A stretch of 64,000 bases of DNA, taken from a virus (taxonomy: Duplodnaviria > Caudoviricetes). The stretch lies in the IMG/VR virus record IMGVR_UViG_3300021387_000688, one strand, 5' to 3'. The notes under the pieces are model-generated. The model searched no databases, was not told the DNA's origin, and saw only the letters and a program-made list of their open reading frames with translations. The position numbers were made by a program, and so were the translations under genes. This document shows, piece after piece, positions 21,283-50,093 of this stretch (position 1 is its first letter; every line of letters starts with the position of its first letter).

Positions 21283-21497
21283 CCTTTAATCTCCCGGAAT
21301 CCAAGAAGAGTTATATTTTCCAATTCAGGATTTAAAGACTCAACTTCATGCTTCAACTGCAAGATTCCTTCTTTAGTATCAATATCAATATCGACAGAAG
21401 TATCCATAAAGAAAGAACCCATTTCAGTGTTTTTATATTGAGGAGCTTCTTCAACTTTTTTCTGAGCGGCATATGAAATATAGAATCTTTTAACCAT
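21279..21497 (-). CDS. Hypothetical protein
   Basis: GGAGG SD; ATG overlapping the nadD stop (TAATG). Confidence 0.6.
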   Translation of the reverse strand: MVKRFYISYAAQKKVEEAPQYKNTEMGSFFMDTSVDIDIDTKEGILQLKHEVESLNPELENITLLGFREIKG

Positions 21498-22199
21498 TAA
21501 GTCCTCCCGTAATATTCTTTGTCTGAAAGATACATATCCATCAATTCTGCAATCAAAGTATTGCGCACATTGGTTGCAGAACATTCTTCAAATTCTGTAC
21601 CCATGTCGAGAGGGACAGCTTCAATAATAGGAATTGGGGCATCGATTGTATCTGGTCCAGAATCCTTGCAATAAAAATCAAAGCCTCGTTTAAGATTGTC
21701 ATTCATCTTCAAAGTTTTACTTACATGATCTGAACGATTGGCCACAATCAATTTTGCAAGCTTAAGGATATCTTTATATCGTGTCCAAGTAGTAAACTCC
21801 TTAAAAGAATCTTCTCCAATCATTAAAAAGAGTTCGTCATTTGGATACTTGTCATGGAAATACTGTACCAAATTGATAGATCTCCAAGTACCGTCTTTAT
21901 CTTTTTCAATTGTATCGATTTCTACATCATAAGGGCATTTCACCAAAAAGTCTTTAATGATAGTAACCTTTTCATCATAAGAAAAAAGATAACGCTTGTC
22001 AGGTCTGTAATAATTTACAGTTGTAGGAACAATAACTACCTTATCTACAAGATTCTGTTCAAAGGCTTTTACAATTAAAGCCATATGCCCCATGTGAAAA
22101 GGATCAAACGTTTCAAGTGCCGCCGTAAATACCAATTCTTCTACGATTGGTATTTACGGCGGCATTCTCCTTAGTATTTGAATTTTCAATATCTTTCAT
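21497..22199 (-). CDS. nadD: Nicotinate-nucleotide adenylyltransferase, coding sequence interrupted by a 7-nt gap (22115-22109)
   Basis: 5' ORF 22199-22113 MKDIENSNTKENAAVNTNRRRIGIYGGT*; 3' frame FDPFHMGH...MIGEDSF..W...SATNVR. Joined, they give the canonical IGIYGGTFDPFHMGH. Confidence 0.85.
22118..22164. repeat. Perfect 19-bp inverted repeat with a 9-nt loop inside the nadD 5' region
   Basis: TGCCGCCGTAAATACCAAT (22118-22136) / ATTGGTATTTACGGCGGCA (22146-22164). Confidence 0.95.
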
Positions 22200-22214
22200 A
22201 TTAAGAATATAGGT

Positions 22215-23228
22215 TTATTTGTGCCTATATTTTCTTAAAAAATCTTTTCCATATTGAGTATTTATATAATTTAAAATTTCTTTCATTTCCTTGTTGCTAA
22301 AAATTTTTACATTATTTTGTTTCATACATTTCTCTTTAGCTAATAGTTGCTCATTACTAATCCCTTTAAAAGGATCTATTAGGTGACCCTCAGGATTTAT
22401 TAAATGACTTCCTTTGAGTTCTATCAATTTATCCCCTACTTTAAAATCCACTTCGTATTTATGTTTTTTACCTTCTATCTCGTATTCTAAATATTCTGTA
22501 TGGTAGGAAAAATCGATATTATGATCCTTAAGATAAATGTAGTAAGCTAACTCCCAACTTGAATCAAAATAAATGTTTTCGTAAAAATAATAATGCGTTT
22601 GATGCCCAGATCCCCCGTACATTCTTCCCCATCTTTCTAAACAGGTTTTAGCAGCTTTTTGTTTAACTTTATCTGATTGGGAAGATGCTTCATAACCATA
22701 TTTTTGAATACATGTTTGTTTTCTTTTTTGTACAGCTTCTTTTGTACTACATTTTATTTTAGATTTTTCCCTAGCTTCCTTTGTTTGCATTGGACCTGTA
22801 GAGTGTCCAAACTTCTCTATCATTGTTTGTTGTTGCTTTACGTGGGCTTCTTTTATAAGACCACCGCACGTAATTCCTTTGCCATACTTTTTCTCAACTG
22901 CAGCTGAAATGATGTCAGTCCTTTTAAAAATATTATCTACCCCATATTTCTTTATAGAAGTTTCTTTAGCTTTTTCTAACCTATGCTTTTCATAATTTTC
23001 CCAAGAACCGTATTTTTGGATTTTGGTGTCCTTGCTCTTGCAAATAGGGCATAGAAGTTTTGTAAGTCTATTATAAGGATTGTTTTTTAAGAAATGAATT
23101 TCTTTTCCACAGGATTCGCATTTTGAAATAAAAGATTGTTTACTTTGATAGATTTCACATGCTTCTTGAAAGTCTTCTATAGAAGACACATAGATAGGTG
23201 TTTCTGAAAATTTTAATTTGTTACTCAT
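22215..23228 (-). CDS. Free-standing putative homing endonuclease (Zn finger, KxTCxxKYG repeats, C-terminal PD-(D/E)XK-like domain)
   Basis: CESC..CPIC; repeats KETSIKKYG, KQTCIQKYG, KTCLERWG; FDSSWELAYY...YEVDF...IELKG. Confidence 0.75.
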   Translation of the reverse strand: MSNKLKFSETPIYVSSIEDFQEACEIYQSKQSFISKCESCGKEIHFLKNNPYNRLTKLLCPICKSKDTKIQKYGSWENYEKHRLEKAKETSIKKYGVDNIFKRTDIISAAVEKKYGKGITCGGLIKEAHVKQQQTMIEKFGHSTGPMQTKEAREKSKIKCSTKEAVQKRKQTCIQKYGYEASSQSDKVKQKAAKTCLERWGRMYGGSGHQTHYYFYENIYFDSSWELAYYIYLKDHNIDFSYHTEYLEYEIEGKKHKYEVDFKVGDKLIELKGSHLINPEGHLIDPFKGISNEQLLAKEKCMKQNNVKIFSNKEMKEILNYINTQYGKDFLRKYRHK

Positions 23229-23244
23229 AGTGTTTTTCCCTTTT

Positions 23245-23338
23245 AAGACGCGCCAACGTCTTTTATATTTTTAATTAGTAGAAAGGGTTAGAAAGAAATG
23301 AGTAAATCCTTTCAAGAGGTTGGCGCCTCCTGTCCCCT
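23245..23338 (-). promoter_or_regulatory. Two hairpins with complementary loops (kissing pair) upstream of the endonuclease
   Basis: Minus strand: CAGGAGG-CGCCAA-CCTCTTG and AAGACG-TTGGCG-CGTCTT. Confidence 0.55.
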
Positions 23339-23356
23339 ATGATTTTAGTTAGCCCC

Positions 23357-23983
23357 TTATAATGTTTTTAAGATGTCTGCTACATCTTCTTTTGTAAAAT
23401 TACTTCTATACATAATGTTCTGAAGGTCCTTTTTAATACGAGTGATTTTATCCTCGTGAAGTTCCTGCTTAGCATTATCGAAAAGTTCTTTCAAATCATA
23501 TCTTAAATATTCACGAATTTGGTCTTCCCAATTTTCAGGCATTACTTCAGCTTCTGCGGCTTTATAATCTTCATCCTTGAAAAGTACACCCATGCCATAG
23601 CCACTTGGACCGTATAAAGTTGTTTTCTGTTTAGGGGAACAATAAGGCTCATACAATGAAGGGTTAGCAGTATCAATGTAAAGCTTGTCGCAACCATTTT
23701 TTGGTTCCGGGAGGGGAACGTAATAGTAGTAATAGTTGTTGGCATAAATACGAATTGGATTGATATAGGATTCGTTATTAGATTCTGCCCACTGCACTAC
23801 AGCATAGATGTGATCTTTTATATGCCATGCTAATGCATTCAAGGCTTCTTCGAAATTAAAGCCTTCTCCAATAATAGTAGAGTTCTGAACTCCTGCTTCC
23901 GGATGAGAATTGAATTCTGCGCAAAGTCGAAATTTTACTCCAATCTTAATTTGTGCAAGTGTTGAACCTTTCATTTCAGTCAT
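23357..23983 (-). CDS. Hypothetical protein
   Basis: ORF in track; start likely ATG 23983, coupled to the upstream small ORF. Confidence 0.6.
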   Translation of the reverse strand: MTEMKGSTLAQIKIGVKFRLCAEFNSHPEAGVQNSTIIGEGFNFEEALNALAWHIKDHIYAVVQWAESNNESYINPIRIYANNYYYYYVPLPEPKNGCDKLYIDTANPSLYEPYCSPKQKTTLYGPSGYGMGVLFKDEDYKAAEAEVMPENWEDQIREYLRYDLKELFDNAKQELHEDKITRIKKDLQNIMYRSNFTKEDVADILKTL

Positions 23984-24095
23984 CCCAAACATCCTCTTCT
24001 TCGCCTTTATAAGAACCTTCTTCATAGTCAGGAAGTTCTATAACAATATCTTCAATAATATCTTTTTTAACTTCTGGTTTCTGATTTTCATCCAT
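23976..24095 (-). CDS. Small acidic protein (39 aa)
   Basis: MDENQKPEVKKDIIEDIVIELPDYEEGSYKGEEEDVWDD; operon context. Confidence 0.45.
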   Translation of the reverse strand: MDENQKPEVKKDIIEDIVIELPDYEEGSYKGEEEDVWDD

Positions 24096-24097
24096 AA

Positions 24098-24271
24098 TTA
24101 AATTCCTGTACAACTTGGTACATATTCTGTAATACGAACAGTATATCCATTTGCACGAAGTTCTTTTGCAAGGGCTTCTATTTTGGCTTCATAACGCTCT
24201 TTGCCAGTAGAACAAACAAGATTGCCTTCTTTGTCGTATGCACGGAGTTTATATTCAGTGTATGCTATCAT
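24098..24271 (-). CDS. Small early protein (57 aa)
   Basis: Class I promoter and AAGAGGTAACAG-ATG; MIAYTEYKLRAYDKEG... Confidence 0.7.
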   Translation of the reverse strand: MIAYTEYKLRAYDKEGNLVCSTGKERYEAKIEALAKELRANGYTVRITEYVPSCTGI

Positions 24272-24370
24272 CTGTTACCTCTTGAATATAATATAGAAAA
24301 ATTCAGTTCCGAGTTTATCTATATTTTCATTATATTTGAACTAAATATTCTATTAAAGGAGAATATAATT

Positions 24371-26206
24371 ATGGGAAATCCTATTACTAATGAATTACCA
24401 CCTAGCCTTGATAATTTCATGCAGGATATGTGCCAGATGTATACAAAGAAGATGAATTATTCACATGTGGCTAAATTCGCTGAAAAGGCTACCGCTGAAG
24501 ATATTAAAGCTTTGAGAAAACTCTATAGGAAAGCAAAAGAAGCCGCAGAGGTAGATGACGAAGAAGAAATGCAAGACATTGCAGACGAAGTTGAGAAACT
24601 CGTATTTGAGAAAATTGCATTGAAAGATTCTATCAAGGAATCTTTTGAAGATGAGGAAGATGATCCTTTTGCAGCTGAAAAAGAAGGTAATCCTTATATC
24701 TTAGGAAACTGTTCTATATGCGGAGCTAAGGGAACTGATACAGTAGAAAACTTCTTGAAGAAATATGGTTTTGAGGATATAGATTATTCTTGTGATATAC
24801 TCGATATTGATCCTCTTGAAGAAGTTTGTGAAGAATGTTTCAAGTCATGGCTTCCTGAATTGAATGATAAAACATATTCCGAATATGATGACTTAGGTAC
24901 AGATACAAGAACAGGTTTGCCTTTTGGAGAACCATTCGATGAAAGTGTTAAAAACAAATCCAGTTTGAAAGAATCTTGCGCTTACAATATTGTTCAAAAG
25001 GTTATAAAAGACAATATACTTCCTAGTACAGGGTATACAGAAACAAATGAAGGTATTGAAGCTACATTCAATATCAAAGAAGTAACAGATTATACAGGAT
25101 TGGATGATCCTTTAGAAGCTGTTGAAGCTCTTTTCAAGGGACTTGGTTATGATGGTGCAATTGAACAGATTGCAAATGAAGAAGAATTTATTACAGTAGA
25201 GTTCCCTTATACATCTGAAAACTTGACTGAATCAGAATCTACAGCTTATAATGCAGGAAAGAAAGCGGGTAGAGAAGGTAGAAAGTTTAATCCATATGGA
25301 TTAAGTGATCAGGATGCAGATGATTATGCAGACTTTGAAGCAGGTCGACAAGCAGGGGAAGCTGAATGTTCAGAAGATTGTTTGAGTGATTACCAAAAAG
25401 ATGTAATTAAAGATATGGTACAAGCCGACTTTGAGTGCGGACATACAATGGATTATGAAGAAGCACTTGCAGGTATGGAAGAAGATGAGGATTTAGGACC
25501 TGTAGCAGAAGAGGCAGCCAACTATTATGTAGAACTTGTTCAGATGGGTCCAGCAGGAATCATGGATGAAATTGAGGATGGTTGGAGTGATGATTATAAA
25601 GCTGAATACGGAATCCGCGAATCAAAAAAGAATACTAAGAAAGGATTGAAAGAAAGTATCAGTCCCGACGAATGGAATGATATTTACGATGGGTTTGTAG
25701 AATCTGCAATAGATAGTTATCCTGGAGATCCTGCCGATATAGATTCTCAAGCTATATACGATGATATGGCATTGACAGTAGAACATTTCGAACCTGATCC
25801 TAACGATGAAAATCCTGAAGAATCTTTAAGAGATTGGATTTACGATCATATGCAACCTAGCGATTATGTACCAGAATACGATGACGATGAAGAGTTGGAT
25901 GAATCAAAAAAGAATACTAAAAAAGCTTTAACAGAATCTGAAGAAGACGAAATGTGGCAAGCTTATAATACTTGGTTCGATGATTGTGATGCCGCTTATA
26001 ACAGGCATGAAATAAACGATGAATTCATGGCTGATTATAATGCATTCGAACAAGCTTACAAAACTGCTTCAGGCAAGGATGACGTTGAATATGGAAGTTT
26101 GAAGGATATTTACGATCCTTGGTATGAATCCCATGCGCCGCACTACGACTTAAGTCATGCAGATCATTGGGAAGCAGGTTGGAAGTTTGGTAAAGGACTT
26201 ATGTAA
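24371..26206 (+). CDS. Very acidic protein with repeated L/I-x-ES motifs (prohead core/internal protein-like)
   Basis: IKES, LKES, LTES, IRES, LDES; duplicated ESKKNTKKxLxES (20-bp DNA repeat at 25619 and 25901); ACTAAATA upstream. Confidence 0.55.
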   Translation: MGNPITNELPPSLDNFMQDMCQMYTKKMNYSHVAKFAEKATAEDIKALRKLYRKAKEAAEVDDEEEMQDIADEVEKLVFEKIALKDSIKESFEDEEDDPFAAEKEGNPYILGNCSICGAKGTDTVENFLKKYGFEDIDYSCDILDIDPLEEVCEECFKSWLPELNDKTYSEYDDLGTDTRTGLPFGEPFDESVKNKSSLKESCAYNIVQKVIKDNILPSTGYTETNEGIEATFNIKEVTDYTGLDDPLEAVEALFKGLGYDGAIEQIANEEEFITVEFPYTSENLTESESTAYNAGKKAGREGRKFNPYGLSDQDADDYADFEAGRQAGEAECSEDCLSDYQKDVIKDMVQADFECGHTMDYEEALAGMEEDEDLGPVAEEAANYYVELVQMGPAGIMDEIEDGWSDDYKAEYGIRESKKNTKKGLKESISPDEWNDIYDGFVESAIDSYPGDPADIDSQAIYDDMALTVEHFEPDPNDENPEESLRDWIYDHMQPSDYVPEYDDDEELDESKKNTKKALTESEEDEMWQAYNTWFDDCDAAYNRHEINDEFMADYNAFEQAYKTASGKDDVEYGSLKDIYDPWYESHAPHYDLSHADHWEAGWKFGKGLM

Positions 26207-26226
26207 TTAAAAAATTGCAAAATAAA

Positions 26227-26253
26227 AGCCCCTTCTAAGAAGGGGCTATTTTT
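26227..26253. terminator. Bidirectional terminator
   Basis: AGCCCCTTC-TAA-GAAGGGGCT flanked by A and T runs. Confidence 0.75.
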
Positions 26254-26260
26254 ATGCCTT

Positions 26261-27070
26261 TTAAGCTAACACTTCTCCAATTGGATCATCGAATTTCCAA
26301 TTCTCTTTTAATCCCAATTCAGGATGAGCCATTGGTAACAACTTTAGTTTTGTATTTGGATTCAAGTGCATCTTTTTGATTTTGTTATAAACTTCAAATG
26401 ACTTTGGAGCTAAACCTTCTCGGATGAAAACATCTAAAGCATCATATGTAAAGCCCATATTATCTTCATCACTCTTTCCACACATTCCATCTGAAGGGGT
26501 TTTGTGAACAAGCTCTTTTGGAAGTTTCATATAGTCACCTAAAGCAACAACTTCTGTTTTTGTAAGCTGGTTCAGCAAAGAGAAGTCCCCGCAGCAATCT
26601 CCATACTTTGTAGAGTAACCAACAAAGTCTTCTGAATAGTTACAAGTGTTGCAAACAAAACCGCCAAGCTGAGCAGCAATACCATAAAGTGTTACCATTC
26701 GTAAACGGGCTGGGGTATTTGTTGTAAATAGAGGGGTCCACTGATCAGGAGACTCTTTAATATCGGATGTATCAATCTGATCTTTCAAAGCATCGTAAAC
26801 CGGCCCAATGTTTACTTTCATTGACTGAATTCCCAAAAGTTTGCAAACTTTAATAGAGTCGTCAAGGTCCATCTGGACACCGTTTGGCATCATTACGCCA
26901 ATTACCTTTTTTGGACCTAAAGCTTCAGTCAAAAGAGCAGCACAAATGGTACTGTCTTTTCCACCTGAAATCCCTAAAACTGCAGGACCTTTCTTATCCT
27001 TAAAGAAGTCTTTGATAAAATCAAGGAGCTCATAATAGACTTCCTTTACATCAAATTCGTTTGGACCCAT
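26261..27070 (-). CDS. nadE: NH3-dependent NAD+ synthetase
   Basis: LGISGGKDS, NTPARLRM, GYSTKYGD, LTKTEV, KTPSDG, DEDNMGFTY. Confidence 0.95.
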   Translation of the reverse strand: MGPNEFDVKEVYYELLDFIKDFFKDKKGPAVLGISGGKDSTICAALLTEALGPKKVIGVMMPNGVQMDLDDSIKVCKLLGIQSMKVNIGPVYDALKDQIDTSDIKESPDQWTPLFTTNTPARLRMVTLYGIAAQLGGFVCNTCNYSEDFVGYSTKYGDCCGDFSLLNQLTKTEVVALGDYMKLPKELVHKTPSDGMCGKSDEDNMGFTYDALDVFIREGLAPKSFEVYNKIKKMHLNPNTKLKLLPMAHPELGLKENWKFDDPIGEVLA

Positions 27071-27073
27071 AGG

Positions 27074-27589
27074 TTACTCCTCTATGATGTTGCACTGACA
27101 TGCTTTCATAACAGCTAAAGCAGCCTTATGATTTTCCGGATTCAAATCTGCACAACAATTTGCCAAAACATTTACTTCAACATTGTCAATCATTTTGATT
27201 GCAAGTGCATTGCTTACGACACAAATAGATGTTACTGTTCCACAGATTGTAACTTCGTCTCCTGGACGAATAAATTCTTTCCAACCTTCGAATCCGAAAT
27301 GTTTTTTATCTACATAGAGTGTTTCATCTGTAGCTTCTTCTGCAAGTTCAGGGACGATTTCCCAACCTTCTGTACCTTCAATACAATGCTTAAATGGAAG
27401 TTTAATTCCTTCCATTGTTTCAAGATAATCTTCCCCATGGCTATCATGAGTAAAAATCAAATTCATTCCTTCTGCTTTTGCCTTCTGCAAAGCTTTCTTA
27501 ATGTTTGGAATAATTGCCACTGCATCCTTATTTGCCAATGTGCCTGTACAGAAATCGTTCTGCATATCTATTACAATAAAATGTTTCAT
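27074..27589 (-). CDS. pncA: Nicotinamidase (isochorismatase family)
   Basis: VIDMQNDF, THDSH, HCIEGTEGW, DKKHF, GTVTSICV; AAGGAG SD before ATG 27589. Confidence 0.9.
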   Translation of the reverse strand: MKHFIVIDMQNDFCTGTLANKDAVAIIPNIKKALQKAKAEGMNLIFTHDSHGEDYLETMEGIKLPFKHCIEGTEGWEIVPELAEEATDETLYVDKKHFGFEGWKEFIRPGDEVTICGTVTSICVVSNALAIKMIDNVEVNVLANCCADLNPENHKAALAVMKACQCNIIEE

Positions 27590-27590
27590 A

Positions 27591-28172
27591 TTACTTAATC
27601 TCCTTAATTTCAAACTTTGATGATGTATTTACTCTTGAAGCATACATATACCCGATTAAACCCATTCCACCTTTCTTTAACAAAGTGGCCTGGTTTTCCA
27701 ACCTATCTACAAAGACTTCACAATCTTCTGTTTTGTCCAACTTCTGCTTTTTCTTGTTTAAGAATTTGTTTAATAAACCTTTATCAACAAATTCAAAAAC
27801 ATGCATCAAGTTGTTAAAGTAGGCTGGGTTTCCATTGAAGGTTGCAATCTCTTTTAAGGAGGATTGTGCAACTTCAATTCCTGTTTCCTCTCGGAATTCT
27901 CTTACTGCGGCTTCTACTGGACTTTCATTTAAGTCAACTGTACCGCAAGGGAATTCAATTGTAGAATGTTCGCAGCCCCATCTGGTCTGTTTAACAAAAA
28001 CACAAACTGGATCTACGGTTGCGTCCTTTGCGATAATCATTACCCAATCATTGCAGTTGAGTCCTACTGGCTTGAATTCCAAGTTTTCGTATTCTTTTTC
28101 AACTACAATAAAGACTGGGGTTTTAAGAAGCTCGGTCTCTTTTACTTTATTTAAAAGTTTTGGTGTAACCAT
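27591..28172 (-). CDS. Nudix hydrolase, ADP-ribose pyrophosphatase-like
   Basis: VKQTR...IEFPCGTVDLNESPVEAAVREFREETG Nudix box. Confidence 0.85.
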   Translation of the reverse strand: MVTPKLLNKVKETELLKTPVFIVVEKEYENLEFKPVGLNCNDWVMIIAKDATVDPVCVFVKQTRWGCEHSTIEFPCGTVDLNESPVEAAVREFREETGIEVAQSSLKEIATFNGNPAYFNNLMHVFEFVDKGLLNKFLNKKKQKLDKTEDCEVFVDRLENQATLLKKGGMGLIGYMYASRVNTSSKFEIKEIK

Positions 28173-28175
28173 TTT

Positions 28176-29462
28176 TTACTCCTTTGACTTCAAACGCCAA
28201 TCAAGAGTTCTACGAAGGTAGTCAACATATTCCTGGCTGCGGCTCATTGTCTTTCCACTGTCATCAGAAAGTTTTGCAACATCCTTTCCGTTTACAAGCA
28301 CGACTTTTGCAACAATGTTAAGAGGATCAATTGACTGAGGGCCACTCCAATATGTTCCAATTCCGAAAGCTGGCTTTGCTCTACCTTCAATGTATCTGCA
28401 AAGCTTGTCCCAAAGTTCAAGGCTACTAATAGAGTTACTGAAAAGAAGTGTTTTTGTTTTTGGATCAATTCCAAGAGACTTGTAGTGCTCAATCCAATCA
28501 TCAGCCCATTTGAAAGGATCACCTGAATCGTTACGAACTCCACTGAAAAGTGTTGCATAAGTTTTCTGCATATCTCTGCGGCAAAGTTCATCTCCGATCG
28601 TATCTGTAAGCCAAATACCGTTCCAAACTCCGTACTCTTTTACCCAAGCTTCCATTGCAAACTTGTTACTATAAGCAGGATTCAAAGTTGGATTTCCCTG
28701 ACCAACGCATTCAATGAATTCATGAGCGCAAGTTCCAACAGGGGTGACATTGTATTTTTTTGCCAAAAGAACGTTTGAAGTTCCAATAAAGCCAGGAAGT
28801 TTTTCTTCTGCAAGACGGCCAATCAACCAATCCTGAGCTTCGTAAGAAAGGCGGCGACGTGCGCCAAATTCAGACCAAGCTCCAAAATGGAAGTCTCCTT
28901 CCTTCATCTGCTTGATTTTTTCTTCTGTCTTTTCTTTGAATTCTTTTAAGAGCTTGTCATAGTCGTAGTGATTGTGATAATAAACTTCTGCAAAAATCTC
29001 AAGTACTGGAATTTCGTAGTATTCAATATATTCCTGAACACCATGGAAGTTTAATCCAATACCGAACTTTTCATCTTCAGTGAAAGTAAAGTCTTCAAGA
29101 CATGGGTGCCAGAATTTCAAGAAGTTGAGATAATCCCTTTTAATCCAAGGACATTTCTTTCCAAGGTATTCAAGTTCATCTACTTCAAAACGAAGGGCAC
29201 AATAAGCTTTGATTTGATTTTCGATTTCGGTACGATCTTTGGCATCGTATTTTTCTGGATGTTTGGAATCTTTTCCAACGTTACGGGCTTTGAAGTCCCA
29301 AGTTGTTTTAAGATTTCCGAATTGATGATGATAAGTCTGGCCCATACTGAATTTGTACAAGTCAGTATCAAGTAATGATTTTACCATTGGAGGATACTTC
29401 AATCCGAAGAACTCCATTACTTCTGCTTCGTCAGCAGTTCTTTTGCCGTGAATTTCCCACAT
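28176..29462 (-). CDS. pncB: Nicotinate phosphoribosyltransferase
   Basis: SLLDTDLYKFSM, SEFGARRR, GTSNV, GTCAHE, LTDT, VRNDSGDP, FGIGT, KLSDDSGK. Confidence 0.95.
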   Translation of the reverse strand: MWEIHGKRTADEAEVMEFFGLKYPPMVKSLLDTDLYKFSMGQTYHHQFGNLKTTWDFKARNVGKDSKHPEKYDAKDRTEIENQIKAYCALRFEVDELEYLGKKCPWIKRDYLNFLKFWHPCLEDFTFTEDEKFGIGLNFHGVQEYIEYYEIPVLEIFAEVYYHNHYDYDKLLKEFKEKTEEKIKQMKEGDFHFGAWSEFGARRRLSYEAQDWLIGRLAEEKLPGFIGTSNVLLAKKYNVTPVGTCAHEFIECVGQGNPTLNPAYSNKFAMEAWVKEYGVWNGIWLTDTIGDELCRRDMQKTYATLFSGVRNDSGDPFKWADDWIEHYKSLGIDPKTKTLLFSNSISSLELWDKLCRYIEGRAKPAFGIGTYWSGPQSIDPLNIVAKVVLVNGKDVAKLSDDSGKTMSRSQEYVDYLRRTLDWRLKSKE

Positions 29463-40121: not shown

Positions 40122-40835
40122 TTAGATTGAATTGATCAAACTGAACAATTCTGCTCTAGCTTCTGGCTGAGTTTCAAATACCCCGCGAAGTACTGAAGTT
40201 GTAGTTGTAGCATCTTCAGATTTAACACCACGAACTGCTACGCAGCTATGAGTAATATCTTTCATTACTACTGCACATCCTACTGGGTCCAATACATCTA
40301 CCATTGCATCTGCAATCTGTTCACTCAATTGTTCCTGAATCTGGAAACGATGTGCATAATCTCTTGCCATGCGAGGAATCTTTGACAATCCACATACTTT
40401 GTCTTTTGGAATATAAGCTACATAAACAAATGAATCATCTTTATATGTTCCAAACGGTGCAATATGATGTTCACATTGTGAGAATAACTTAAACTTGCAA
40501 ATAACAATACCATTCTGGAAGTAAGATGTTTTCTGTACTCCAGTCTTTTCTCCATTAATGGCATTACCGCGTTCAACGTCAAATACTTTTTTGATATGAC
40601 GTTTTGGATCTACCATGTATCCTGATGCAAATGCTTCAGTCCAATACTTTGCAAGACGATGAGGAGTTTCTTTCATTCCATCTGGAAGCTCTTCTTCATC
40701 TGTAAGTCCCATTGTTTTTTTAAGAAGATGTGCAAACATTGCTTCATCTTCTTTGTTAAAAATGTTTTTGATTTCTACCTCAGATTCGGTAGTTTCATAG
40801 ACAGGCTGTCCGCCTTTGTAATTAATGTGTTTCAT
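40122..40835 (-). CDS. folE: GTP cyclohydrolase I
   Basis: ETPHRLAK, SQCEHHIAPF, GLSKIPR, QIQEQL, HSCVAVRGV. Confidence 0.95.
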   Translation of the reverse strand: MKHINYKGGQPVYETTESEVEIKNIFNKEDEAMFAHLLKKTMGLTDEEELPDGMKETPHRLAKYWTEAFASGYMVDPKRHIKKVFDVERGNAINGEKTGVQKTSYFQNGIVICKFKLFSQCEHHIAPFGTYKDDSFVYVAYIPKDKVCGLSKIPRMARDYAHRFQIQEQLSEQIADAMVDVLDPVGCAVVMKDITHSCVAVRGVKSEDATTTTSVLRGVFETQPEARAELFSLINSI

Positions 40836-48293: not shown

Positions 48294-49136
48294 TTATTTT
48301 GCTTCTTCTTGAGTACCTTCAGTAGCCATCAAAGACTTGTTGTAAGCATCCTGGCGAAGATAGATTTCAATATTTCTACGAGTCCTGTCTTCAAGATCCT
48401 TACTTGCATTTACACCAAAGAGTTCATCCGCTTCTGCTCCACGTTCGTAAGCTTCAGGAGTAACTGCCTTATCATAAACCATTGTAATCTTTTTAATACC
48501 TACAATAGAGGTTGGGCTATACAACCAATCTCCTGGAGCCTGGTGAGTTACAACTTCAATTCTTGTTAGGCGGATATCTGTCATTTTCAAACCAGCTACT
48601 GGAATCTGCGCGGTAGATCTATTTTTAGGGTCTTTAACATATTCAGTAAAATCAATATGGGCTGTAAATTCTACCATTGATTCGATTGTAGATGTAGCAT
48701 CTGCGGCTTTGAATTTTCTTTTATTCTCTTTACCATTCTGTAACCAAAAGATTTCAACTTCATCATATCCACGATTAAGAGTCATTGTAATATCCATACT
48801 CTTAATGGCAGCTGCATTTGTGATATAACCTGCACCGTTATTAGCTTCATTGAAAGAAGGCTCTACGAATGCGATTGCATAACGGCTGTCTGAATATCTT
48901 GGAGCTGAATCAGTTCTAATACAAAGTCCATACTTTTCAGAAAGTACTGGATTAAAAAGATTTCTACCTGGCTCGTAAACACCTGAAATACCTACGGCTC
49001 TAGAATTTTCGATCCAATCATAACCTGTGTCAAGAACATCAGCTTTTGTATTACAATCAAATAAAGTTGCTTCATCTGCAAATACAATACCTGTAAACAT
49101 TACAAGCGCTACCAAAATTGAAATAAACTTCTTCAT
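48294..49136 (-). CDS. flaA: Spirochaete flagellar filament sheath protein FlaA-like
   Basis: Signal peptide ending VFA-DEATLFD; GYITNAAAIKSM and KITMVYDKAV...MATE resemble Treponema FlaA motifs; adjacent to flaB. Confidence 0.7.
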   Translation of the reverse strand: MKKFISILVALVMFTGIVFADEATLFDCNTKADVLDTGYDWIENSRAVGISGVYEPGRNLFNPVLSEKYGLCIRTDSAPRYSDSRYAIAFVEPSFNEANNGAGYITNAAAIKSMDITMTLNRGYDEVEIFWLQNGKENKRKFKAADATSTIESMVEFTAHIDFTEYVKDPKNRSTAQIPVAGLKMTDIRLTRIEVVTHQAPGDWLYSPTSIVGIKKITMVYDKAVTPEAYERGAEADELFGVNASKDLEDRTRRNIEIYLRQDAYNKSLMATEGTQEEAK

Positions 49137-49241: not shown

Positions 49242-50093
49242 CTATTTTAACAAGGCAAGTACGTTCTGAGAAGAATTGTTTGCCTGAGCCAACATAGCTA
49301 CAGATGCCTGTTGCAATACTTGGTTCTTAGTATATTCTGTAATAGACTGAGCCATATCAGTATCGCGAATACGAGATTCTGCAGATTGTGTATTTTCGGC
49401 CGCAATGTTGATACCCTTCTGGGCCATCTCCATACGGTTCTGGTAAGCACCAAGATCTGCTCTTTGCTTTGTTACATTTTTCAAAGCTTCATCTACCGTT
49501 GCAAGGGTTGTACTTGCTTCATCTGGACTTGCGATAGAAATTACATTAGATTCCTCTCCCTGCTGCCCCTTCAATCCAAGCGCAGTAGCTGTCATTGTTC
49601 CAATGTAAGCTCTAATATTCTGATCCATATTAGCTCCAATCTGGAACTGCATAACCTGATCTGACTCCCTAGAGAATCTACCTGTCAAAAGGTTCATTCC
49701 ATTAAATTGTGCAGAAGATGCAATTCTATCTACTTCAGATACTAACTGGCTTACTTCAACTGCAATCTGCATGCGGTCTTCATCTGAATAAACTCCATTT
49801 GAAGCCTGTACTGCCAATTCTCTAATGCGCTGAAGTACATCTGTAGTTTCTGCAAGATAACCTTCTGCTACCTGAACAAATGAAACTGCATCACCGATGT
49901 TTCTTGAAGCCTGATTAAGACCCCTAATCTGAGATCTCATTTTCTCACTTACTGCCAAGCCTGAAGCATCGTTACCTGCTTTGTTAATTCTTTCTCCTGA
50001 AGAAAGAGCTTCTACTGATTTCTGAAGGTTCTGTGTGTTAAGACCTTCCATTCTGCTTGCGAACAAGCTACTCATGTTGTGATTAATGATCAT
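49242..50093 (-). CDS. flaB: Flagellin (Treponema-type FlaB core protein)
   Basis: MIINHNMS...[30 protein letters not shown]...[12 protein letters not shown]...[11 protein letters not shown]...MLAQAN. Confidence 0.97.

Follow-up and report, generated by a model that had tools for sequence, protein, structure and literature searches.

A probable nicotinamide-to-NAD+ salvage module in a huge gut phage, with a mobile endonuclease cassette and a putative short ribosomal hop at nadD

Three phage pathways that restore NAD+ have been proven to defeat Thoeris, DSR2 or SIR2-HerA: NARP1 (Adps and Namat), NARP2 (Nampt and Nmnat, Vibrio phage KVP40) and NARP3 (PnuC and NadR), the last published in 2026 (PMC13464706). 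Phosphatases that are added to NARP1 operons are reported to counter the aRES defense. In a separate study, 668 huge gut phages were assembled and 174 of them were named ‘NAD-jumbo phages’ for their complete salvage or Preiss-Handler pathways (Microbiome 2024, PMC11662467). That study showed a pncB-nadD-nadE cluster (e.g. in Kuafu_71), mentioned phage pncA and made no mention of a Nudix protein; a counter to Sir2-mediated NAD+ depletion was suggested, pending experiments, and a role in NAD+ supply was also proposed. Here we describe a set of five genes, pncB, pncA, nadE, nadD and a Nudix hydrolase gene, in 64,000 nucleotides (nt) of phage DNA (IMG/VR virus record IMGVR_UViG_3300021387_000688), which we refer to as the window. 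Judging from its genes, the module is probably a phage-borne salvage route from nicotinamide to NAD+ by which the infected cell's NAD+ pool would be maintained or restored. A preliminary description of this DNA had proposed the set as a possible new third route, a claim that did not survive, since both the Preiss-Handler clusters of phages and the counter-depletion idea had already been published and NARP3 had been described as PnuC and NadR. The kind of system is already described; what this module adds is a conserved linkage with an ADP-ribose-type Nudix gene, the parallel with an operon of Treponema and the state of nadD. The endonuclease cassette at nadD, with its apparent short bypass, is the most surprising feature of the region.

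The genes pncB, Nudix, pncA and nadE form one minus-strand operon (26261-29462) with intergenic gaps of 3, 1 and 3 nt, and nadD lies on the same strand about 4.06 kb downstream of nadE (Table 1). This is the tight arrangement given in the preliminary description, and the enzyme assignments made there hold as well by family, motif and PDB matches. The pncB product matched PF04095 (1.4e-50) and PF17767, with the N-terminal and catalytic domains both present, and passed the equivalog model TIGR01514 for nicotinate phosphoribosyltransferase (NAPRTase) at 315.8 bits against a cut-off of 269.6. It is the one phosphoribosyltransferase found in the region and among the window's annotated genes, and it is of the PncB type, not of the Nampt or Namat type. 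PncA matched PF00857 (1.1e-30), and its best PDB match was the P. horikoshii PncA 1im5 (E 1e-16); in the alignment to 1im5 the Asp-Lys-Cys triad and the Asp/His/His metal site are kept at all six residues. A TTG start for pncA, in an open reading frame (ORF) reaching 27613, was rejected for its overlap with the Nudix gene, and the ATG is the real start. NadE matched PF02540 (2.6e-48), passed TIGR00552 at 157 bits (cut-off 63.7) and has the SGGKDS P-loop, which binds ATP; it is predicted to depend on ammonia (NH3) because it has no glutaminase domain. Gene identities, catalytic motifs and operon structure are thus directly observed, and the activities of the five enzymes are predicted from them.

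Table 1. Features of the NAD+ module and of the nadD locus. Positions are those of the window unless another contig is named; aa, amino acids; RBS, ribosome-binding site.
Feature	Position	Strand	Description
pncB	28176-29462	-	Predicted nicotinate phosphoribosyltransferase, 428 aa, first operon gene
Nudix hydrolase gene	27591-28172	-	193 aa, ADP-ribose / ADP-sugar pyrophosphatase type
pncA	27074-27589	-	Predicted nicotinamidase, 171 aa counted from ATG
nadE	26261-27070	-	Predicted NAD+ synthetase, 269 aa
nadD ORF1	22116-22199	-	28 codons: ATG (22199), 21-codon extension, recoded IGIYGGT, putative take-off ACT, then TGA (22113-22115)
Coding gap	22109-22115	-	7 nt: TGA, A, putative landing ACG; then TTT GAT CC; aligned to intact nadD of contigs L001, L002 and L007
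nadD ORF2	21497-22108	-	203 codons, predicted body of the nicotinate mononucleotide adenylyltransferase, FDPFHMGH through SATNVR to stop
Perfect hairpin	22118-22164	-	18-20 bp; 3' arm consists of the IGIYGG codons and ends at the putative take-off codon
Mobile cassette	22109-23351	-	1243 nt; replaces 33 nt (RBS and nadD codons 1-8) of the cassette-free variant
DUF7487 protein gene	22215-23228	-	Putative free-standing homing endonuclease, 337 aa; PF24308 1.4e-13; phrog_3339 ‘homing endonuclease’ 1.3e-7
Window junction			ACT TGA A ACG, gap 7 nt
L039 junction	L039: 2660-2890		ACT TA ACT, gap 5 nt
L040 junction	L040: 2000-2300		TCT TAAAAAAA TCA, gap 11 nt
L037 junction	L037: 4990-5450		TCG TAG A TCA, gap 7 nt
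Terminator-like hairpin, bidirectional	26227-26247	both	9-bp stem, 6 GC pairs, T runs on both strands
611-aa gene	24371-26206	+	Function unassigned; outside the NAD module

By the established chemistry of these enzyme families, PncA would deamidate nicotinamide to nicotinate, PncB would join nicotinate to phosphoribosyl pyrophosphate (PRPP) to give nicotinate mononucleotide (NaMN), NadD would adenylate NaMN to nicotinate adenine dinucleotide (NaAD), and NadE would convert NaAD and ammonia to NAD+. The Nudix enzyme would split ADP-ribose into AMP and ribose-5-phosphate.

The five genes were found together, in differing orders, in four very large contigs: the window phage, G001, L041 and L042. 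G001 is a complete 300,878-bp phage with terminal repeats (IMG/VR) that carries its five NAD genes on one strand within 15 kb. Its proteins are 83% (PncB), 67% (NadE), 59% (PncA), 55% (Nudix) and 53% (NadD) identical to those of the window; beyond the module the two are only distantly related (DNA polymerase 28%, baseplate 30%). The same five genes are clustered in still other orders in L041 (437,441 bp) and L042 (295,461 bp); G001 is the relative that was fully compared, and these two contigs are classed as phage-like. Because the co-localization survives this shuffling and the Nudix gene is never parted from the salvage quartet, the pattern argues for one functional unit. Phosphatase genes lie inside two of the modules beside pncA, with a His_Phos_1 match at L041:12563-13126 and a weak Metallophos match at L042:4605-5180. 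A second cytidylyltransferase-like gene is present in G001 (82746-83174, inside a 511-aa ORF) and in L041 (321-887), and these could be further nucleotidyltransferases for NAD or other cofactors.

In the curated phage collection, pncB and pncA are both rare (14 and 7 records, respectively; nadE, 49), and several human-gut phage contigs have pncB-nadE, pncA-nadE or pncB-nadE-nadD neighborhoods. The human-gut phage Phass-1, of the genetic code 15 clade (OQ749652.1, 96860-101298), has a hybrid operon of pncA, prs, ‘Nampt’, a hypothetical gene and a NadE-like gene, a further sign of a deamidating route in gut phages. In Agrobacterium phage Atu_ph07, which is cultured, a span of 6 kb holds a NAPRTase gene, an annotated ADP-ribose pyrophosphatase gene and a pncA-like gene; its nadE lies in another part of the genome.

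With 397,621 bp, and with pncB, nadD (interrupted), nadE and pncA, the window phage falls within the definition of a NAD-jumbo phage, that is, more than 200 kb and all steps of one NAD+ route. It shares with these phages the genome size, the animal gut and the clustering of the genes that lead from nicotinate to NAD+, but differs from them in that pncA and an ADP-ribose-type Nudix gene belong to the conserved set, in its likely host (Treponema as opposed to Bacteroidota) and in the endonuclease cassette carried by nadD. The likeness to NARP2 lies in phage-encoded rebuilding of NAD+ from nicotinamide, drawing on PRPP. NARP1, NARP2 and NARP3 are amidated, two-step pathways, whereas the predicted route of the window is deamidating and would take four steps plus the hydrolase. 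No specific family is shared with Adps, Namat or NadR, and no Prs-like, NadR-type or PnuC gene was found by Pfam and NCBIfam searches of the region and among precomputed Pfam matches of the window's other genes. In the literature searched, up to November 2026, no deamidating phage route had been put to an experimental test, and a ‘NARP4’ of such a kind did not appear.

The closest cellular counterpart of the module is an operon of the order pncB-nadE-nadD-pncA-nrtR on the chromosomes of Treponema metagenome-assembled genomes (MAGs; loci L035 and L036), where it is flanked by hydrogenase maturation genes, argininosuccinate lyase and a solute-binding protein. Its proteins are 51% (PncB), 53% (NadE), 33% (NadD) and 40% (PncA) identical to those of the phage. 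The same four enzymes are tightly clustered in both, in a different gene order, and the Treponema operon ends with a Nudix-fold gene (L035:9044-9904), which encodes NrtR with a Nudix domain and the NrtR winged helix. NrtR is a Nudix-fold, ADP-ribose-responsive regulator of NAD genes. The phage Nudix protein, in contrast, stands alone, keeps its catalytic residues and is not specifically related to NrtR; an NrtR origin of the phage gene was ruled out (BLASTP E 0.24). Because its four genes mirror the chromosomal operon, the module looks like a captured Treponema-type salvage operon in which a catalytic ADP-ribose-type hydrolase has taken the regulator's place.

Rebuilding of NAD+ by such a module would also blunt defenses that deplete NAD+. 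A dedicated role of this kind, i.e. a NARP-like fourth route that was selected because SIR2/TIR-type effectors cleave NAD+ to nicotinamide and ADP-ribose, is a proposal that we regard as possible rather than probable. It draws on the presence of entry enzymes for both cleavage products (PncA and the Nudix protein), on the fact that one Nudix family accompanies the salvage genes in each of the four huge phage-like genomes, and on the precedent of NARP1, NARP2 and NARP3. The phosphatase genes inside the L041 and L042 modules recall those by which NARP1 operons counter aRES, and a search of 81 genomes from the likely host genus detected SIR2_2-domain proteins (800-1400 aa) in 16; this set includes incomplete MAGs, so that its counts here and below are to be read as found and ‘not found’. 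On the other side, the four genes copy an ordinary host salvage operon, the relatives carry consumers of NAD+, such as the NAD-dependent DNA ligase encoded by G001, which fits general supply, the route needs the host's Prs and much ATP, and the idea is already in print, as speculation. The preliminary description had also stated that the route recycles both cleavage products; this stands as far as the two candidate entry enzymes are concerned, but the return of ADP-ribose would need host Prs. General NAD+ supply is at least as likely a purpose as dedicated counter-defense. Of the 81 genomes, only 6 yielded NadA, an enzyme of de novo synthesis, and 30 yielded a PncB homolog, and so many potential hosts may have a thin NAD+ supply.

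Several points weigh against the salvage reading itself. All functional claims made here rest on sequence and models. No Prs-like gene was found among the annotated genes of the window or in the complete relative G001, in which the Prs N-terminal domain was not found; the carbon of ADP-ribose would consequently return only through the host PRPP synthetase, Prs. With its four steps, the route would consume PRPP and three ATP, and an active NAD+-cleaving enzyme may work faster than it can; in addition, the four Treponema MAGs whose homologs are closest showed no SIR2_2 domain. Contigs of a sheep-gut RNA library (run X6) lie on nadD, the Nudix gene and neighbors that include the 611-aa and 208-aa genes and give a hint of expression; these contigs could be DNA carry-over and do not cover the site of the putative hop, so that transcription is not proven.

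The nadD gene was listed at 21497-22135, where its product matched PF01467 (1.7e-14) with NadD models as the best NCBIfam matches. The preliminary description had remarked that nadD would have to be repaired, and rightly so: the frame is interrupted directly after the GGT codons of the GGTFDPxHxGH motif. Both NadD motifs, GGxFDPxHxGH and SxTxxR, are present in the window, the first split after GGT by a stop and a 7-nt gap, and the gene caller reported only a 195-aa piece without the HxGH motif. A TTG start at 22135 was considered and rejected; it would give an N-terminus without the Gly-Gly of the motif, and that frame has no start codon in three other cassettes. L007, a contig of another assembly, is 98.7% identical to the window outside the cassette, has 33 nt in place of the 1243 nt and carries an intact nadD. 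An independent contig of depth 19 (run X3, another sample of the same study) joins 22108 to 23352 by exactly the same 33 nt. The cassette is therefore polymorphic, with a cassette-free allele in other samples. The nadD ORF2 is 100% identical to the corresponding part of L007, and the best PDB matches of the L007 protein are all NadD (1kam, E 2e-16).

In four other contigs, a nadD-like gene immediately follows a homolog of the cassette endonuclease (80%, 78%, 55% and 55% identity), and the surrounding genomic contexts are partly different. The junction DNA was read for three of these contigs (L037, L039 and L040) in addition to the window. In P0012 the endonuclease homolog is followed by a cytidylyltransferase-like gene. 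Neither a relative of the endonuclease nor a match to the degenerate junction pattern was found in IMG/VR.

The four cassettes have the same fine structure. Each has an ATG-started ORF1, in frame, that ends in IGI[YF]GG[TS] and meets a stop immediately after the putative take-off codon, and each has a putative landing codon that encodes the take-off residue and stands directly before TTT GAY CC, the first codon of which is the Phe of the motif. The downstream ORF is intact in all four (187-203 codons), and in three of the four its frame contains no ATG, GTG or TTG. All four also have a strong hairpin that ends at the take-off site (-25 to -38 kcal/mol), whereas two cassette-free alleles fold at only -11.5 kcal/mol and have no comparable hairpin. 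In the window, the 121-nt hairpin region folds at -40.7 kcal/mol (z = -7.6). The hairpin arms co-vary, with GGG GGT opposite ACCCCC in L040 and GGC GGC opposite GCCGCC in the window. When the recoded segments of L040 and L037 are compared, six of the seven codons show a change, in every case a synonymous one, and the IGIYGGT copy of the window's ORF1 has four synonymous differences from the L007 codons. In L039, ORF1 has undergone amino-acid changes but has kept its open frame and its length. Relative to intact nadD (G001, MKIGIFGGTFDP...; L007, MRIGIYGGTFDP...), the 7 extra nt of the window follow GGC GGC ACT, and the same gap sequence was found in L008 and L009, from two separate assemblies.

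We lean towards the view that nadD, in the window phage and in at least three phage-like contigs, is read through a programmed hop of 5-11 nt over a stop, encoded by a mobile DUF7487 cassette. In the window, the ribosome would hop 7 nt from ACT to ACG over the TGA, driven by the hairpin as it re-forms behind the ribosome, and would yield a joined NadD that spans IGIYGGT|FDPFHMGH with the junction peptide ...IGIYGGTFDPFHMGH.... Simple +1 or -1 frameshifting was rejected as a common mechanism: the 7-nt gaps would need a change of +1, whereas the gaps of 5 and 11 nt would need +2/-1. A single slippery frameshift therefore cannot account for all four cassettes, but a hop between matched codons can. 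On this view nadD is probably still expressed, and the NAD+ pathway is then probably complete.

The alternative is that nadD is a fresh pseudogene, broken by the cassette, which leaves the step from NaMN to NaAD to the essential NadD of the host. We consider this somewhat unlikely, although the frame is formally broken, the ATG-started ORF1 stops after 28 codons and gene calling recovers only the piece without HxGH. The insertion is also recent, as seen in the identity of the nadD body with cassette-free L007, and decay would not yet show. Some of the support for a hop is likewise open to discount: dN/dS, the ratio of nonsynonymous to synonymous substitution rates, between interrupted nadD copies was 0.03 and 0.11 but may pre-date the cassette insertion, and the recoded segment could be refreshed by gene conversion. 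We have downgraded dN/dS as proof of function for the interrupted copies, as homing may be recent and the nadD body of the window equals that of L007. What speaks against a pseudogene is that four cassettes whose endonucleases are 55-80% identical have kept the extension, the synonymous recoding, the stop, the landing codon and the hairpin, together with intact downstream ORFs in every case and, in three, the lack of any ATG, GTG or TTG in the frame of that ORF.

The programmed hop would have its nearest described counterpart in the gene 60/MobA locus of phage T4, where the insert shields the DNA from the endonuclease and an upstream stem-loop helps forward movement. Both loci combine an endonuclease gene, an N-terminal extension, recoded target codons, a gap that begins with a stop, and matched take-off and landing codons, and in both an upstream stem-loop may drive forward movement. 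The T4 cassette differs in its target (topoisomerase II, here nadD), its endonuclease (HNH MobA, here DUF7487) and its bypass of 50 nt (here gaps of 5-11 nt). Of the T4-type hallmarks, matched codons, a stop after take-off and linkage to an endonuclease are all present at nadD, and a gap of about 50 nt with an internal stem-loop is not. The gaps here are too short to hold a T4-style take-off stem-loop, and no strong hairpin was seen other than the one 5' to the take-off codon. The nadD locus may thus operate as the T4 cassette does, yet it falls outside the T4 gene 60 family.

The preliminary description had called the Nudix protein an ADP-ribose pyrophosphatase, and its fold and sequence relatives agree with this, though the substrate is not readable from sequence. 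The protein matched PF00293 (3.9e-11) and has a complete Nudix box, in which R91, E92, E95 and E96 are invariant among 39 homologs; a Treponema-annotated homolog is 53% identical. Its best PDB sequence matches are ADP-ribose pyrophosphatases (the B. methanolicus enzyme, T. thermophilus Ndx4, human NUDT5 and E. coli NudE), and its score against NudE, the best NCBIfam model, was 42.5 bits, far under the 169-bit cut-off. The AlphaFold model has a predicted local distance difference test score (pLDDT) of 91.3, and the top 50 Foldseek PDB matches are all hydrolases of ADP-ribose or nucleoside diphosphate (NDP) sugars, with target-normalized template modeling (TM) scores of 0.62-0.81. Membership in the structural group of ADP-ribose / NDP-sugar pyrophosphatases is well supported at the fold level, and ADP-ribose is the candidate substrate.

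A Nudix protein of this group might also act outside the pathway, clearing ADP-ribose or related nucleotides for detoxification, destroying immune signals derived from ADP-ribose, or removing NAD caps from RNA. The closest solved relatives include hydrolases of broad ‘ADP compounds’ and of GDP-mannose, no phage Prs was found that would join ribose-5-phosphate to PRPP, and the host operon has the ADP-ribose-sensing NrtR at the equivalent place. We nevertheless judge such a role unlikely in view of the linkage of the gene to pncA, pncB, nadD and nadE in four genomes, the annotated ADP-ribose pyrophosphatase 3 kb from the NAPRTase of Atu_ph07, and the retention of all catalytic Nudix-box residues in a protein that is not specifically related to NrtR.

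The carrier of the module is most likely a phage of about 398 kb that infects ruminant-gut Treponema. Over the 17-21 kb compared, the window matches two contigs at 100% identity, one of 397,621 bp and one of 397,595 bp, each from a different animal-gut metagenome assembly; it is the reverse complement of approximately 278.8-342.8 kb of the 397,621-bp contig. The closest cellular PncB homologs found (50-55% identity) are all in Treponema MAGs, and the flagellin of the window (Flagellin_N/C; 49242-50093, minus strand) shares 70-72% identity with FlaB of Treponema MAGs and 73% with the product of a G001 gene. A related 66-kb contig was binned into a Treponema MAG. It counts against this assignment that it rests on homology and one binned contig, not on CRISPR spacers. 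An origin of the region from the host chromosome, or an error of assembly or binning, is extremely improbable despite the Treponema homologs and the binned contig. Two separate assemblies gave contigs of identical sequence in this region; its flanks contain genes for baseplate, DNA polymerase A, HNH and PD-(D/E)xK proteins, a 3289-aa ORF and many genes of no known family; and the related phage G001 is recorded as a complete virus and has terminal repeats. In the phage collection, megablast found no match to the region or to L042.

Genes near the module include those for a baseplate wedge protein, a family A DNA polymerase, HNH and PD-(D/E)xK nucleases, GTP cyclohydrolase I, the 3289-aa protein and the flagellin, to which the gene at 48294-49136 (minus strand) is adjacent. 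The GTP cyclohydrolase I gene (40122-40835, minus strand) lies near the 3289-aa ORF and may point to a 7-deazaguanine-type DNA modification or to a folate branch. The interval between nadE and nadD holds the plus-strand 611-aa gene, small ORFs, a 208-aa gene (23357-23983, minus strand) and the 337-aa endonuclease-like gene; the terminator-like hairpin closes both the pncB-Nudix-pncA-nadE operon and the convergent 611-aa gene. The 611-aa protein has no Pfam, NCBIfam or PHROG match and no homolog in G001 or beside the L041 and L042 modules, and the 208-aa protein has no family match and is absent from the related modules.

NAD+ is a central battleground of bacteria and phages, and a deamidating route from nicotinamide, combined with an ADP-ribose hydrolase and recurring in unrelated huge phages, is a clear candidate for a further NAD+-restoring strategy, one that can be tested with the natural alleles and in the cultured phage Atu_ph07, which has a related gene set. 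Copied from a host lineage that mostly seems to be without de novo NAD+ synthesis, the route highlights how huge phages take over the bottleneck metabolism of their hosts. If the hop is real, the NAD+ pathway of this phage would be complete despite a formally broken nadD, and the cassette would represent a second, independently evolved family of endonuclease-plus-bypass cassettes, a combination known so far only from the topoisomerase gene of T4-like phages. Homing endonucleases would then have recruited translational bypassing more than once, and the locus, with a gap of 5-11 nt and one hairpin, would offer a minimal system in which to study ribosome hopping.

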